Source: a virus
Lineage: Duplodnaviria > Heunggongvirae > Uroviricota > Caudoviricetes
Length of the DNA: 25,093 nt
Strand: one strand, 5' to 3'
IMG/VR virus record: IMGVR_UViG_2541047854_000006
In this document: positions 1,659 to 8,500 of the stretch, piece after piece
How positions within the stretch are numbered: position 1 is the first letter of the stretch
How the letters are laid out: the number at the start of each line of letters is the position of its first letter
Notes under the pieces: model-generated
Told to the model about the DNA's origin: nothing
What the model saw: the letters and a program-made list of their open reading frames with translations, nothing else
Database searches by the model: none
Made by a program: the position numbers and the translations under genes

Positions 1659-3788
1659 TTAAGAATCAGCCTGACTCGGGATCAGTTTTTGCCAGATAAC
1701 TGAAACGTATTTTGCCTGGTAACGGGCGTCATCAAGTGCATTATGGCGCTCACCTTCGAATGGAATAGCCGTTCTGGCATCGAAGTCTATGGCTTTCCCC
1801 AGCTCAACGATTGTGCGTACATCGCGATCGTTGTAGTAACGCCACGGGCAGGGGATCCCCTGCCGTTCGTATGAACGGCGCAAAATCGTGTTGTCGAAGT
1901 TGGCTCCATTTCCCCAAACCTGAACAAAAAATTCACCGGAGTTTTCGTCGATAAATTCTCGCAATTGTAACAGTGCATCATCTAACGGGATTTCATCGGT
2001 CATAATGGCAGATTGCGCTTCGCGTGATTGCTTAAGCCACCATTTAATGGTGTCCCGATCAATGACTCCGCCAGCAGTTTCCAGATCGATAGTCTTACTA
2101 AATTCCGGTCCCATATCTCCGGTTTGCGGATCGAAAAATATTGCACCTATTGAGATGATCGGGGCATCAGGATTTTTTCCCATGGTTTTAAGGTCGATCA
2201 TTAGATGGTCACACGTCCTGCTGGTGGATGTGATTTCGTGATGACCGTTCACCTTAATTGGGTGATCTGCCGTCTCGCCAGTTTCATTATCGCTATTGTG
2301 ATGCTGATTGCCGCCAGTGTTCTCCTTGTGTGGATGTTCAGCGCCTTCCATTTCCTCCGGATCATCTTCCTGAACTTCAACCTGATACTCTTCATCGAAT
2401 GTTTCTTGGTATGTTGCGTCGCCCATCACCGCGCCACAATCAGGGCAGTTGCCGCCGCCGGTCTGACCGCAGGCGGTGCAGACTTTTTCCACTTCCTGTT
2501 GCGCTACTGGTTCAGGCTGTTTCGTTTCTGGCTCGTTTTGTAACGCATTTGGACTGTTTTGTTCCGCTTTTTGGTAGTTCCGTTCCGATTCATGCTGGTT
2601 CTGGTTCACAGAATCGCGGGTCTGGAGCCCCTTAACCCATTTCGGATCATTCGGGTCACTAATCCCTTCAACAAATTCACCACGTGATGCAGCAAGCAAC
2701 TTATCGGCGTCAGGCTGGCTGATATTGGCTGCCTGCATAATTTTGTTTACTTCGCCAGCGGTAACTTTTATCGGCTCTGGTTGTTCTGAATCTTCAGCGG
2801 TATCTACATTTTGCGGTAAGCCCGTGTATGTGCCATTTTTTCGGGCAAAATATTCTTCTTTTGTGATTTCAGTGGCGCCAGCAGCCAGTGCCTTATCCAG
2901 ACCAGAGAGTTTGTTTGCGCGACCGTATTTTTCTCCGTCCTTATCTGCGAAGAGGAAATAGAACGGCCCCTCACGCTCTACAGATGGTTCAGCTTCCGGC
3001 GCGGTTTCATTTTTTGGGATATCAGATACCTCAGTTTCCACTGCATCAGTTTGTGTTTCTGATGACTGGAGAACATCAACAGTGCCCAGGTCTGTTTCTT
3101 CATTCTCAAACACGCCCTTTGTCGTCAGGTATTCGCAGATATATTTGTTCAGTGCTACGGGATCTTTGTGAATGTCGATCGGACGCTCACGGACAAGGCC
3201 AAAAATAGTTTGGCGGTCGTAGCGAAGGGCATCAGGCTGTTTGCGCATTGATGCCGAGATACGCTTCCAGTCTTCGCGGTCGTTGTCGATAACTTCTTTT
3301 TTTGCCCAGCGATGGATGCTGCCGTCAATGTTTCCGGCATCCACATCACTAGGCCAGAGAGCGTAGGCCAGTTCGTCATCCAGTGTTTTCCATGTCTGCT
3401 TGTATTCGCGATGAATGGCAGCAATGACCGGGCTGATTTTTCCTGTTGAATTTTCAGTGTACTGTTGATTGGCTCTGGCGCGGGCGAGATCAACAACAGA
3501 CGTGTATTTTCCGGTTTCCTTGCGTTCACCTTCGCGACGTTTTTTCCAGATGCGCATCTCTGCCTGAATTTCGGGCCATTTAGCACCAGGAATACATTTA
3601 TGCTTAACCCACCCAATGGCGTGCAACTTAAGCTCCGGATACATGGCGTTAACTTCTGGCATTTTCATCAACGCTTCAACGATATGTCCGTCGAATGTTG
3701 CCATGTCTTCCTGCAACAATTCCTGTGCGCTAATAACCATAGCGGAACTGTTTGCTGAGAACACCGTGCGGTGTGTTGATGCAAACAA
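1659..3788 (-). CDS. Exonuclease-like protein (709 aa): unknown N-terminal region, acidic low-complexity linker, C4 zinc ribbon, C-terminal DEDD-type 3'-5' exonuclease-like domain
   Basis: Long uninterrupted ORF; central acidic stretch (EEYQVEVQEDDPEEMEGAEH); CTACGQTGGGNCPDCG zinc-ribbon motif; C-terminal region with DLET (Exo I-like), and HNALDDARY (Exo III H-x4-D-like) motifs. Exact start uncertain (several Met near N-terminus). Confidence 0.7.
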   Translation of the reverse strand: MFASTHRTVFSANSSAMVISAQELLQEDMATFDGHIVEALMKMPEVNAMYPELKLHAIGWVKHKCIPGAKWPEIQAEMRIWKKRREGERKETGKYTSVVDLARARANQQYTENSTGKISPVIAAIHREYKQTWKTLDDELAYALWPSDVDAGNIDGSIHRWAKKEVIDNDREDWKRISASMRKQPDALRYDRQTIFGLVRERPIDIHKDPVALNKYICEYLTTKGVFENEETDLGTVDVLQSSETQTDAVETEVSDIPKNETAPEAEPSVEREGPFYFLFADKDGEKYGRANKLSGLDKALAAGATEITKEEYFARKNGTYTGLPQNVDTAEDSEQPEPIKVTAGEVNKIMQAANISQPDADKLLAASRGEFVEGISDPNDPKWVKGLQTRDSVNQNQHESERNYQKAEQNSPNALQNEPETKQPEPVAQQEVEKVCTACGQTGGGNCPDCGAVMGDATYQETFDEEYQVEVQEDDPEEMEGAEHPHKENTGGNQHHNSDNETGETADHPIKVNGHHEITSTSRTCDHLMIDLKTMGKNPDAPIISIGAIFFDPQTGDMGPEFSKTIDLETAGGVIDRDTIKWWLKQSREAQSAIMTDEIPLDDALLQLREFIDENSGEFFVQVWGNGANFDNTILRRSYERQGIPCPWRYYNDRDVRTIVELGKAIDFDARTAIPFEGERHNALDDARYQAKYVSVIWQKLIPSQADS

Positions 3789-3876
3789 GATTAGCCATGA
3801 CTAACATATCGGTCAAGTGATTTTGTATGCTATAGCTAACATAATTGATGTGGTAAAAGATAACTCATTGATGATG

Positions 3877-4284: not shown

Positions 4285-4367
4285 AGTTAGCTAATGCTAA
4301 ATCGTATTGACTATGTTTTTGTTAACATCTATCTTGTTAGTTATGACTAACAATAAAGGTGTTTTAA
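4285..4367. promoter_or_regulatory. Divergent dicA/dicC promoter-operator region with two related palindromes
   Basis: Palindrome TTAGCTAATGCTAA at 4287..4300 and GTTAGTTATGACTAAC at 4336..4351 (shared TTAG-N-CTAA half-sites) lying between divergent start codons of repressor and Cro-like genes; AT-rich. Confidence 0.6.
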
Positions 4368-4598
4368 ATGCTTAAAACTGACGCTCTTTTGTATTTCGGT
4401 TCAAAAACAAAACTTGCACAAGCAGCAGGTATTCGTTTGGCTTCGCTTTATAGCTGGAAAGGGGATTTAGTTCCCGAAGGTCGCGCGATGCGTCTACAGG
4501 AGGCATCTGGCGGGGAGCTTCAGTATGATCCCAAAGTTTATGATGAATATCGTAAGACGAAGCGGGCGGGGCGGTTGAACAATGAAAATCACTCCTGA
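4368..4598 (+). CDS. dicC: DicC, Cro-like small DNA-binding regulator
   Basis: 76-aa protein MLKTDALLYFGSKTKLAQAAGIRLASLYSWKGDLVPEGRAM... matches remembered DicC; divergent from dicA as in cI/cro arrangement. Confidence 0.85.
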   Translation: MLKTDALLYFGSKTKLAQAAGIRLASLYSWKGDLVPEGRAMRLQEASGGELQYDPKVYDEYRKTKRAGRLNNENHS

Positions 4599-4921
4599 AC
4601 AGGCTCGTGAGGCTCTGGATGCCTGGATATGTCGACCAGGAATGACACAGGAGCAGTGGCGATGTATACAACTCCGGCTACGGGTTATTCCCCTCTGAAC
4701 AGGCGCGTAAGGACTGGCAAAACGCCCGCAAAAAACTCTCGAGGGCAAAGGTGAAGAAACCTGCTGTGGTTGATCCGGACCTTATCTGGTCATCACCTGA
4801 CGGAGAAATACGTCGCTACGACAGTCGCCTAAACATAATCTGTCGCGAGTGCCGGAAGAGCGAAGTTATGCAGCGCATACTGGCTTTCTATCAGGGTAAT
4901 TTTCAGGACGTGGCGCAGTGA
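4582..4921 (+). pseudogene. Early-right ORF apparently split by a +1 frameshift (or two short overlapping ORFs)
   Basis: Frame 1 ATG 4582 gives 38 codons ending at TGA 4696..4698; frame 2 is open from 4646 to TGA 4919..4921 (ends in GTGA overlap with next gene). Both frames contain a similar EQAR..DW motif. Alternative: second ORF starts at GTG 4751 with GAGGG RBS. Confidence 0.3.
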
Positions 4922-5364
4922 GTGCACCGGCAACCATTCTTGATATGTGCTGTGGCAGCCGCATGTTCTGGTTCGATAAGTCTGACGAACGGGCGATATT
5001 CAGCGATATCAGAAAAGAAGGATACACATTACGCAATGGGAGACGCTTGATTATCAGCCCTGACATTATCGCAGATTTTCGTGCATTATCATTTGCAGAC
5101 GCATCTTTTTCGATGGTTGTATTAGACCCTCCGCATCTTGAGAGTGTTGGTGATAACGCCTGGATGGGAAAGAAATATGGACGGCTGAATAAAGATGCCT
5201 GGCGTGATGATTCGCGACAGAGATTTAAAGAAGCCTTTCGGGTGTTGAGGCCGCACGGCGTTCTGATTTTTTAATGGAATGAAACGCAAATACCGGTAAG
5301 CCAGATTCTGGCACTGACAGACAGAAAACCTGTTATCTGTCAACGAACAGGGAAAAAACGATAA
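4918..5364 (+). pseudogene. Methyltransferase-like ORF (DPPH motif) interrupted by in-frame TAA
   Basis: ORF 4918..5274 (LDMCCGS and VVLDPPH motifs typical of SAM-dependent DNA methyltransferases) stops at TAA 5272..5274 but the same frame continues WNETQIPVSQ... to TAA 5362..5364; the sequence across the stop (GVLIF*WNET) resembles the conserved post-DPPY region of methyltransferases. Confidence 0.45.
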
Positions 5365-5696
5365 AACCCACTGGATTATTTTTATGAAAGAGGCATCCAG
5401 TGAGTAGATTCGTAAGGCTACAGATACGTATATCTGAATAATTAAATTCAGTTCTGTAAATAAAATTTAATCCTTAACCGGATGGATTTCTGCACCCTCA
5501 GAACATCAGGAGGCCGCCCGAAAGGGCGGTAGTGAAATGCGAAAGTTCAAAATTATTATTGAAACGGGAATAGCTGGTGGAGATTTTGAGGATGTATTCG
5601 AAGTGGACGATGACGCAACACCTGAGGAAATTCATGACGGAGCATAAGAAATTTTCTTTAACTACTGCAATTACTCATACCACGAAATAAAAGACG

Positions 5697-5888
5697 ATGA
5701 GGAAGAACAAAGTGGCTGATTTTTGTTCAGCTAAATATAACATCAGTTTTGAAGAGCGGGATGAACTATTAATGGACTATGGTGAGTTACGCGGTGGAAG
5801 TGCTGCTGATGTCGAATCCTAGCGTGATGACTATGAAGCGGGAAAAACTCCGGTCGAAGCATATTGTGATGAGTGGGGCGATGAATGA
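5697..5888 (+). pseudogene. Small ORF with in-frame TAG (41 codons, TAG at 5820..5822, 21 more codons)
   Basis: ATG 5697; same frame continues through the amber codon to TGA 5886..5888 which overlaps the next ATG (ATGA). Coding status uncertain. Confidence 0.3.
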
Positions 5889-6172
5889 GCGAGATTAATT
5901 ATCAGGAAGGGCATGAAACGGCGGGGCAAGCAAAACCAGTGGCATGGCGATATCGCTACGTGAAAAAAGGCGTTACGGACTTTCAGGGGAAGTAGTGGTC
6001 TGGTGACTGGAAATATGTACCGAAAAAAGAGGATTGTAACGACAGGCCGAACTATCAAATTCAGGCCTTATTCACTGCCTCACCAGTCCCAGTTACATCA
6101 GAAGAACTGGTTAAAGCTGTGCACTTTTATGAACAACTAAAACGCGAAAATCCACCAACATCCGGCAACTAG
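5885..6172 (+). pseudogene. Small ORF with in-frame TAG (36 codons, TAG at 5993..5995, 58 more codons)
   Basis: ATG 5885 MSEINYQEGHETAGQAKPVAWRYRYVKKGVTDFQGK, amber, then WSGDWKYVPKKEDCNDRPNYQIQALF...SGN with terminal TAG 6170..6172; non-repetitive protein-like composition on both sides of the stop. Confidence 0.3.
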
Positions 6173-6426
6173 ATTAATGGATTAACTATGTCGGTTAAAC
6201 GACCAGCCAACTGAAAAAGCGGAAACCTGATTACAGGTTGCCAGATAAGGCAATGAGCTACCTGGCGCGGAACGGACTGATAAGTATGGGGAATGTTTTA
6301 CGATGAACCTTTAGACTAAAGAGTTTGTAACGCTATGTAAGTGATTTTTTCTGGTTTAGATATTTATATGTCCGGCCAAATTGAGGTGTGTTTAAATGTA
6401 ATTGCACATTGATTGTAGGAGGAATA

Positions 6427-6606
6427 ATGAAAAACGCATTGCAGTTTTTGTTTGTTGCGTTCTGGTTGTTCGCATCATGTATGCCCATCATCTTCACAGC
6501 AAGGTATATGGAAAAAGTTGATGTTTTGATATTAATATTTGGATATATAAATGCCCTTTTTTTAGGGGTGTTCATGGCGGTCATGTGCATTGAATACTGG
6601 CGGTAA
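6427..6606 (+). CDS. Small hydrophobic membrane peptide (59 aa, two predicted TM segments)
   Basis: ATG 6427 preceded by TAGGAGGA RBS; MKNALQFLFVAFWLFASCMPIIFTARYMEKVDVLILIFGYINALFLGVFMAVMCIEYWR is dominated by two hydrophobic stretches. Confidence 0.45.
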   Translation: MKNALQFLFVAFWLFASCMPIIFTARYMEKVDVLILIFGYINALFLGVFMAVMCIEYWR

Positions 6607-6799
6607 ATACAGCGAACTCCATTGGTTTAGTTGGATATTTACTGTGCTGGACAAAAACGGTTTGCGGGGAAATCTTAGTTAAGTAGAATGACTGCGGGTG
6701 CTTGAGGCTATCTGCCTCGGGCATGGACACCAACGGCAGATAGAGAAAAGCCCCAGTTAACATTACGCGTCCTGCAAGACGCTTAACATTAATCTGAGG

Positions 6800-8500
6800 C
6801 CAATTTCATGCTAGACACATGTAGGTTAGCCTCTTACGTGCCGAAAGGCACGGAGAAGCAGGCTATTGTTAACACCAAGCTGTAATGTCCCCTTTGAACC
6901 ATTCTAAAATGTCCCCAGACAATTCTCTGGGGGATTTTTCATGATCAAAGAGACTGTTACGATGAGTCATAAGGAACTCCACCGACTTCAGATTATTCAG
7001 GAACAAGCTGCGGCACGCATTGGCATTTCTATTCGGCAGGTTAAACGTCTGGTGCAACGGTATAGAAATGAAGGGCCTTCTGGTCTGGTTTCCCACCGAC
7101 GTGGAAAGCGTCCTAATAATTCCTTTTCTACTGAATTCAGAGCAACAGTAATTTCACTCCTCAAAGGCCGTTACGCTGATTTTGGACCTACGTTTGCGTG
7201 CGAAAAATTGCGCGAGATACACGGTTTATCTTTATCCGTTGAAACTCTCAGAAAGTGGATGATAGAAGAGGGGTTATGGCGTGAACGCCGTCGTAAAATT
7301 GCCCGTATATATCAACGCCGCATGCGACGACCATCTTACGGTGAACTGATCCAGATTGATGGCTCACCTCATGACTGGTTTGAAAATCGAGGCCCCAGAT
7401 GTACACTGATCGTTTTCATTGATGATGCCACCAGTGCGTTGATGGCGTTGCGTTTTGTGCCTGCTGAAACAACCCGGGCTTACATGGAAACCCTCCGGGG
7501 TTACCTTAATGATCATGGCGTACCGCTCGCTCTCTACTCTGATAGACACAGTATATTCAGGGTAAATAACCCAGAGCGGGAAGGTGAGCTGACCCAGTTC
7601 ACTCGTGCGATAAAGACACTGGGCATCGAGCCAATCCATGCCAACAGCCCGCAGGCAAAAGGGCGGGTAGAGCGCGCCAATCAGACACTACAGGACAGGC
7701 TGGTCAAAGAAATGCGGCTTCAGAATATCAGTGATATTGAAACAGCAAATGCATGGTTGCCGACCTTTATTGAAGCCTATAACAACCGGTTCGCTACGTC
7801 GCCTCGTACTACTGATAATGCTCATCTTGATGTGCACCATTCTGAAGAGGAACTGGGTTATATCTTCAGCCTACAGGCGAAGCGCGTTCTGTCTAAAAAT
7901 CTCACTTTCCAGTACAAAAGCAGTGCGTTTCAGGTACGCAGTGAGGGCCGGGGATATCGACTTAGGCATTCGGTTGTTACTGTATGCGAGAACTTTGACG
8001 GTGAAATTAACGTTCTGTATGACGGGAAAGCGCTGGGCTGGGAAAAGTATGTTGATGGCCCGGAGCCTATACCACTGGATGATGAAAAGAGTGTCCATGA
8101 ACGAGTGGATAATGCCCGTATTGATTTACGCTCAAAATACTATGTTAAACCTAAAGCTGACCATCCCTGGCTTACGCGCCGAACGCAAAGTCATCAGCAA
8201 GTTAAGCCCCCGAAGTTACCTAAAAAGAAGCCTGATCCCGATAAAAAAGATTGAAACCAAGATCGATTCGGTTGAGTGCATATCCATTCATAGGGTAGAT
8301 TCTTAAGTCGCGTTTCTGGTGTTCATTTTCGGGTGGTTTGTTACTTGTTTTACCGGGGATATGCCAGAAACGCGCTGAGTCAGTCTGGGCGGTGCGCGTA
8401 ATGAGGCGTTATGGTAAATAGCCTATGCTAATGTCCGCTAAGAGCAAGAAGCGGAAGTTGGCAGTTTTGTGGACTGTCCCCACAAAAGTGACTACAGAAA
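6800..8500 (+). mobile_element. Insertion sequence-like element carrying a DDE transposase (boundaries approximate)
   Basis: Single transposase ORF interrupting prophage gene order between early-right remnants and flxA; terminal inverted repeats could not be defined by eye, so ends are estimates. Confidence 0.4.
6941..8254 (+). CDS. DDE transposase with N-terminal HTH and integrase-core (rve) domain, IS481/ISNCY-like
   Basis: 437-aa ORF; N-terminal HTH-like region (AAARIGISIRQVKRLVQRY); catalytic-core motifs LIQIDGSPHDW (D), LYSDRHSIF (D), GRVERANQTLQDRL (E); lysine/proline-rich C-terminal tail. Confidence 0.85.
   Translation: MIKETVTMSHKELHRLQIIQEQAAARIGISIRQVKRLVQRYRNEGPSGLVSHRRGKRPNNSFSTEFRATVISLLKGRYADFGPTFACEKLREIHGLSLSVETLRKWMIEEGLWRERRRKIARIYQRRMRRPSYGELIQIDGSPHDWFENRGPRCTLIVFIDDATSALMALRFVPAETTRAYMETLRGYLNDHGVPLALYSDRHSIFRVNNPEREGELTQFTRAIKTLGIEPIHANSPQAKGRVERANQTLQDRLVKEMRLQNISDIETANAWLPTFIEAYNNRFATSPRTTDNAHLDVHHSEEELGYIFSLQAKRVLSKNLTFQYKSSAFQVRSEGRGYRLRHSVVTVCENFDGEINVLYDGKALGWEKYVDGPEPIPLDDEKSVHERVDNARIDLRSKYYVKPKADHPWLTRRTQSHQQVKPPKLPKKKPDPDKKD

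Follow-up and report, generated by a model that had tools for sequence, protein, structure and literature searches.

Stop-interrupted genes in the early-right operon of the cryptic Escherichia coli prophage Qin probably reflect ordinary pseudogene decay

The closest described relatives of the locus studied here are the Qin prophages of Escherichia coli strains K-12 MG1655, ATCC 8739 and O15_8X. In K-12, DicA has been shown experimentally to repress the dicC promoter, and a ten-fold drop in DicA raises dicC transcripts by ~700-fold (PMC3441716). The locus in O15_8X (L004) carries dicA, dicC, relBE, hokD, cspB/F/I, rrrQ, nohA, tfaQ, pinQ, ydfK and ydfJ. Its gene order starts with int, xis, a truncated exonuclease, dicA, dicC, a ydaT-family gene, an O-like replication gene and a DUF977 gene, continues through a class I SAM methyltransferase, a DUF7167 pseudogene, a ‘hypothetical’ pseudogene, a truncated ISNCY transposase and ydfW, and ends with flxA, relBE, hokD, the csp genes, lysis genes and tail genes; the order in K-12 Qin agrees with it. 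Pseudogene decay in cryptic Qin is an already known kind of feature, half of which PGAP has flagged.

The DNA analysed here (the window) is a stretch of 25,093 nucleotides from a viral sequence record (IMGVR_UViG_2541047854_000006). Save for one absent block, it is 99.97% identical to the Qin of O15_8X, and it holds the divergent dicA/dicC immunity pair and, at the chromosomal locus on the ydfJ side, the gene complement of Qin. Its chromosomal context (relBE, hokD, cspB/F/I, pinQ, ydfK, ydfJ) is common to the Qin copies of ATCC 8739, O15_8X and K-12 MG1655, and its dicA and dicC are the genes that PGAP names in O15_8X. Judging from this identity and gene content, the window is the cryptic Qin prophage of E. 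coli. Unlike known Qin, this copy is without ydfABC-dicF-dicB-ydfD.

The run of stop-interrupted genes in the window belongs to the Cro-side (early-right) operon. The first gene of this operon, dicC, encodes an intact Cro-like regulator (4368..4598, plus strand), present in the ORF list and at identical coordinates in the PGAP annotation of O15_8X (WP_000920568.1). A consensus scan of the dicA-dicC intergenic region placed a promoter-like site for dicC, Cro-side and PR-like, upstream of it on the same strand (TTGACT-17-TATCTT, 4307..4335). From there the operon reads dicC, the ydaT-family gene, the O-like replication gene, DUF977/lygF, a small DNA methyltransferase, DUF7167 and two small nin-type ORFs, here called ORF3 and ORF4. 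An Rfam scan of the window returned only sok, cspA 5'UTRs and IS009, none of which overlaps the stop-interrupted run.

A first-pass annotation, made from the letters of the sequence, took these ORFs for pseudogenes of a silenced early-right operon. Both the homology of the ORFs to intact genes and the repression exerted by DicA (PMC3441716) agree with that reading, and we consider it very probable that the run reflects ordinary neutral pseudogene decay of the DicA-silenced Qin early-right operon. DicA would hold the promoter off, selection on the prophage as a phage would have ceased, and the genes of the operon would therefore drift neutrally, gathering point mutations, some of which make stops, along with small indels and deletions; in the strain of the window, a further 1.6-kb deletion has taken out the toxin-like and replication genes. 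The relaxed selection documented below is probably due to silencing by DicA, and the truncated products are presumably all non-functional.

The largest lesion lies directly downstream of dicC, where the first-pass annotation had described a single ORF (4582-4921) with an apparent +1 frameshift. When the window is compared with O15_8X (L004) and ATCC 8739 (L002), both by blastn and directly, this proves to be a deletion junction: 1,591 bp are missing at a 3-bp CAG microhomology (4654..4656, no strand assigned), and the block absent from the window is present in both L004 (4657-6244) and L002. Lost with this block are the 3' part of ydaT, all of the O-like replication gene and the 5' portion of DUF977. 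What remains of the YdaT-family gene (4582..4698, plus strand), which aligns to a gene of 522 nt in L004 and L002, is 25 authentic codons (4582-4656) followed by 13 out-of-frame codons and a TGA. The YdaT_toxin domain, residues 59-131 of the intact 173-aa protein, is deleted in the window, so that with codons 1-25 alone the remnant falls outside the YdaT toxin family (PF06254). The DUF977/LygF remnant (4655..4921, plus strand, frame 2), identified by Pfam PF06163 and by the annotation of L002 and L004, consists of the last 89 codons of its gene (88 plus the stop; PF06163 E = 7e-16); because of the deletion its 5' part is missing, and profile positions 54-134 of 134 remain in place of the full-length domain. 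YdaT in frame 1 is thus joined out of frame to DUF977 in frame 2, which accounts for the apparent frameshift.

This deletion is private to the window when set against other Qin copies, its junction occurring in 0 of 5,426 complete E. coli genomes. The same area has been lost in other ways elsewhere. One strain (L005) is without positions 2525-4128 of L002, another (L006) without positions 2253-4129 of L002, and a third (L001) has 150 bp missing from the ydaT/O/DUF977 area, while in K-12 the next gene after the ydaT remnant ydfX is ydfW. Counting the window, the segment has therefore suffered at least five independent deletions (window, L001, L005, L006 and K-12), with a different left junction in each. 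Many Qin copies retain intact ydaT, O and DUF977 genes.

The gene that follows is a pseudogene of a small class I SAM-dependent (DNA) methyltransferase (4918..5407, plus strand), recognized by phrog_954 and by nucleotide alignments with intact homologs. As first annotated, its ORF (4918-5274) stops at a TAA (5272-5274) behind which 29 further codons are open (GVLIF*WNET); that stop is an AAA -> TAA change at codon 119. There is also a second lesion, an extra G (+1) at 5340-5342, and the original stop is the TAG at 5405-5407. The phrog_954 match (E = 4.7e-73) covers query residues 5-147, its alignment continuing through the stop, and the translation contains both the SAM-binding motif DMCCGSRMF and the catalytic motif DPPH, which places it in phrog_954. 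Once reconstructed, the protein shares 84-87% identity with intact E. coli proteins of 162 aa. Intact homologs are 157-167 aa long, with K at the stop position in hundreds of them; in the window, the codon-119 TAA and the frameshift at 5340-5342 break what would be an uninterrupted frame of ~157-167 aa.

PGAP calls the 118-aa stub a normal CDS (WP_001310834.1) in many genomes, and a sequence cluster at the 118-aa length has 385 members. One might accordingly take the short forms for real conserved genes and the frames downstream of the stops for non-coding DNA, but this is very improbable. Codon by codon, the post-stop segment of the methyltransferase matches intact homologs of 157-162 aa in E. 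coli, Klebsiella, Salmonella and many phages. Ending at 118 aa costs the protein 44 residues, into which the phrog_954 match runs on (to residue 147), and the pre-stop segments are themselves relaxed (24 nonsynonymous to 14 synonymous changes; see below). The stop position also drifts, a rare variant (P0006) having GAA for TAA. On the strength of these alignments, we conclude that WP_001310834.1 is a truncated pseudogene product.

Next in the run is a gene that the first-pass inventory missed, the fourth to be interrupted by a nonsense codon. This DUF7167 pseudogene (5537..5719, plus strand) was identified by PF23768, which reaches 51.6 bits (cutoff 24.4) once the stop is repaired, and by intact 60-aa homologs in L007, L008, L012, L015 and L016. 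An AAA -> TAA change at codon 37 (5645-5647) interrupts the ~60-aa ORF, and PGAP labels it ‘internal stop’. ORF3 (5712..5888, plus strand), which matches phrog_519 (E = 5e-14) and intact 58-aa homologs, is absent from the PGAP annotation. Its start codon has changed from ATG to GTG (5712-5714), and the ORF called at 5697/5712-5822 does end, as had been noted, in a TAG (5820-5822) with 21 codons open after it; this is a TGG -> TAG change at codon 37 in a CCTGG (Dcm site) context. In one viral contig, TAA replaces that TAG.

The lesions of ORF4 (5885..6306, plus strand; phrog_660) emerge from alignment to an intact 171-aa gene (L015) and to 119-aa genes (L012, L013). Its first stop, the TAG at 5993-5995 that ends the annotated ORF 5885-5995 and leaves 58 codons open, is a CAG -> TAG change at codon 37. 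The TAG at 6170-6172, which had been taken for the end of the gene, makes a fifth nonsense codon, since the intact 171-aa homolog reads CAG there; the original stop is the TGA at 6304-6306. ORF4 has further lost 90 bp in frame at ~6157, between two NPP-coding repeats, and 4 nt (-4) out of frame between 6204 and 6205. PGAP labels it ‘frameshifted; internal stop’ at identical coordinates.

Aligned to intact homologs, all five stop positions are sense codons elsewhere (AAA, AAA, TGG, CAG and CAG). What follows the stops is homologous to coding sequence and is not unrelated non-coding DNA, and the short versions are not the ones conserved. Likewise, the matches to phrog_954, PF23768, phrog_519 and phrog_660 pass through the stops. 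The 21-58 codons that stay open behind the stops noted at first pass could also be read as a sign of programmed readthrough or suppression, whether by a suppressor tRNA or in a context-dependent manner, that keeps the genes functional. That is extremely improbable, however: TAA and TAG are mixed among the stops, the window has 0 tRNA genes, the frameshifts in the methyltransferase and ORF4 are beyond rescue by readthrough, the stop codons themselves mutate in relatives, and the post-stop sequence is relaxed (12 nonsynonymous to 12 synonymous changes). Programmed readthrough or recoding would call for purifying selection on the extensions and no other disruption of the frame, and the observed extensions fit neither.

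To gauge the reality and frequency of the stops, we queried 5,426 complete E. coli genomes with four 41-mers, one per stop and each centred on it, such that any megablast seed must span the variable base. At least one stop allele was present in 917 of the 5,426 genomes, and all four tested alleles in 356, including annotated Qin copies in which the alleles of the window recur at 100% identity. When the sense alleles were queried instead, 0 of 5,426 genomes had them at all four sites on a Qin-like background; L015 came closest, with two sites matching. Because the four stops occur together in 356 genomes, which were assembled independently, they are not sequencing errors. A sequencing or assembly artefact is scarcely credible; the small indels, too, are in the O15_8X assembly, where the alignment to the window is gap-free across their sites. 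The 1,591-bp junction, found in no other complete genome, is the one lesion that could by itself be an assembly collapse, but its 3-bp microhomology is clean and similar independent deletions occur in other strains.

The full tally for the run comes to five nonsense codons, two frameshifts, one in-frame deletion and one large deletion. The three in-frame stops listed at first pass are thus real, but the list was incomplete, lacking the DUF7167 gene, the fifth stop and the indels. We polarized substitutions against intact homologs, for which 1,113 coding nt were polarizable. The Qin lineage carries 66 derived substitutions, of which 37 are nonsynonymous, 25 synonymous and four nonsense. When 66 substitutions with the observed spectrum were placed at random on the inferred ancestor, they made 3.4 stops on average, as against the four observed in the polarizable part (P(>=4) = 0.46). 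The nonsynonymous to synonymous ratio of the Qin-derived changes (37:25) differs from that of polymorphisms shared with intact homologs (14:40; Fisher P = 3e-4), while the ratios before and after the stops (24:14 versus 12:12) do not differ (P = 0.43). The Qin branch has thus evolved under relaxed constraint on either side of the stops.

The first-pass annotation had also held that a preponderance of frame-preserving stops over indels is unusual for simple decay. This does not stand up, as the stop count matches the neutral expectation and indels had been overlooked. The mix of lesions was assessed with ~0.052 stops per substitution and ~0.09 small indels per substitution, the latter taken from V. 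cholerae mutation accumulation, in which about one indel arises per 11 substitutions (PMC6105331). A nonsense share of five out of seven or five out of eight lesions then has P = 0.06-0.12, uncorrected for post hoc selection. If anything, the polarizable 1.1 kb is a little short of small indels, with one observed against 4-6 expected (P ~0.02-0.08), a post hoc shortfall that is sensitive to derived substitutions predating inactivation or imported by recombination. We also considered and rejected a single mutational signature: the stop-making changes are two A-to-T, one G-to-A and two C-to-T, and the Dcm CCTGG context holds at the ORF3 TGG -> TAG change only. Being heterogeneous, these mutation types imply no single mutational process.

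That all genes of the run are inactivated, that the stop alleles stand at high frequency and that the ydaT/O/DUF977 segment has been deleted at least five times with left junctions all different would each suit adaptive inactivation, in which early-right genes (the toxin-like YdaT, the replication initiator, the methyltransferase and the small nin-type proteins) would be harmful on derepression and loss-of-function alleles would be positively selected instead of just tolerated. We regard this as unlikely: there are as many stops as neutrality predicts, ydaT, O and DUF977 are still intact in many Qin copies, and several lesions per gene together with drifting stop codons fit neutrality. Each of the four alternatives weighed here (short genes, readthrough, artefact and adaptive inactivation) is much less likely than neutral decay.

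A separate observation concerns the placement of the stops. DUF7167, ORF3 and ORF4 are all stopped at exactly codon 37 (5645, 5820 and 5993), 108 nt past the start, and the next stop (6170) lies 177 nt further on, giving a stop spacing of ~175 nt. For one randomly placed stop per gene, three identical codon indices have P ~1e-4; neutral decay does not predict such a shared position. We looked for a tandem or dispersed repeat of ~175-nt period, which might point to gene conversion, and found none. A mutational hotspot at codon 37 was rejected as well, recurrence being unsupported in the 120-141 viral-contig copies per gene. In these contigs the DUF7167 and ORF3 codon-37 stops occur only together and always beside the ORF4 TAG, and independent DUF7167 stops fall at codons 2, 46 and 58. 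Codon 37 of ORF4 is hypervariable (CCG, TAG, CAG, TTG, ATG, TGG, CTG), and its TAG alone is far commoner than the full stop set; copies that have only this stop could be ancestral or recombinant mosaics. It is very improbable that the stops are non-random and reflect some mutational or selective process that depends on position within a silenced, translationally coupled operon, which recurrent selected loss of ydaT/O could accompany; such selection might, for example, favour stops near the next start codon, avoiding Rho-dependent polarity. We treat the shared codon-37 placement as a coincidence noticed post hoc, for which we offer no explanation.

With neutral decay as the preferred reading, the main value of this analysis is one of correction, as a worked example of ‘grounded’ prophage decay in which stops, frameshifts and nested deletions are seen at successive stages across strains, up to the fully deleted run of K-12. 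Two points bear on annotation. By the alignments above, the 118-aa ‘class I SAM-dependent methyltransferase’ (WP_001310834.1), which has been propagated widely, is a truncated pseudogene product, and the ORF3 pseudogene is wholly unannotated. Nothing in the locus points to recoding or to a new mechanism.

Comparison with related prophages sets these lesions in context. The methyltransferase, DUF7167, ORF3 and ORF4 genes lie intact side by side in an E. coli prophage of strain JNEC-KY178 (L015) and in phages vB_EcoS-689R5 and ArgO145, where the module reads DUF977, methyltransferase, DUF7167, a 58-aa ORF and a 171-aa ORF. Its order and its overlapping, translationally coupled junctions are as in Qin, at ~90-98% nucleotide identity; however, all of its genes are open, whereas the Qin copy has five nonsense codons, two frameshifts and the 90-bp deletion. 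The ORF4 pseudogene allele, for its part, moves among otherwise intact prophages. In the mosaics of ST131 strain EC958 and phage vB_EcoS-640R1, ORF4 has the codon-37 TAG and near-identical downstream DNA, as in Qin, but DUF7167 and ORF3 are intact, unlike in Qin; ORF4 there carries a +2 frameshift in an A-run, and in 640R1 additionally a 57-bp deletion. At the other extreme, K-12 Qin has lost the whole pseudogene run, so that dicC-ydfX is followed directly by ydfW.

In each of three consecutive, translationally coupled genes of the Qin early-right operon, DUF7167, ORF3 and ORF4, a stop falls exactly at codon 37 (window 5645, 5820 and 5993), with the next stop at 6170, 177 nt beyond that at 5993. 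Under a random-placement model, the probability that all three genes would be stopped at an identical codon index is ~1e-4, and neither a repeat nor a recurrent hotspot accounts for the coincidence of the stops at these three positions. The ORF3 stop, a TGG to TAG change, sits within CCTGG to CCTAG (5818–5822), the classical context in which deamination of Dcm 5-methylcytosine gives rise to amber mutations; in lacI, Coulondre and Miller reportedly found Dcm sites to be amber hotspots.

The preceding pseudogene, which carries both a stop and a frameshift, yields a truncated product, WP_001310834.1 (118 aa, window 4918–5274), that RefSeq annotates as an intact 'class I SAM-dependent methyltransferase' in many genomes. 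Even in the closest intact relative, a prophage of E. coli JNEC-KY178 (L015), the nominally 'intact' methyltransferase (2164–2637) stops five codons early through a GAG to TAG change (FMK*), which suggests that its C-terminal tail is dispensable. As a separate observation, this E. coli lambdoid module also occurs, with ~90% nucleotide identity, in PP818812.1 ('Actinobacillus phage vB_Apl-pPE4'), a phage record whose stated host is Actinobacillus pleuropneumoniae; that host or the purity of the record may be questionable.

Comparison of the window at 4654–4656 with loci L001, L005 and L006, which are Qin copies of other strains, and L017 showed that the ydaT/O-like/DUF977 segment was lost independently in the window strain, in two other lineages and in K-12 (ydfX–ydfW), and partly in a third lineage, with left junctions that differ among these independent deletions. 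Such recurrent loss could reflect either a deletion hotspot or selection against toxin-like and replication genes.

Downstream of the pseudogene run lies an unannotated hydrophobic ORF of 59 aa (MKNALQFLFVAFWLF..., window 6427–6606), which has a strong AGGAGG ribosome-binding site and no Pfam match. Its counterpart in phage vB_EcoS-640R1 is ~99% conserved, and there the annotation places 'hornerin' on the opposite strand. A sok antitoxin RNA match follows (Rfam, 104 bits, 6696–6885), accompanied by a mok-like ORF beginning MLDTCRLASYVPKG..., and this hok/sok locus seems to have been truncated by a downstream ISNCY/IS1202-like element with its transposase ORF (6941–8254).

On the other side of the region, the gene directly after dicA is one for a 3'-5' exonuclease that lacks its N-terminal part (window ~3740–3876), and the ydfA-ydfB-ydfC-dicF-dicB-ydfD block is absent, leaving this Qin copy without the DicB and DicF division inhibitors. 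The Qin of strain O15_8X likewise has no such block, whereas the block is present in the Qin prophages of ATCC 8739 and K-12.
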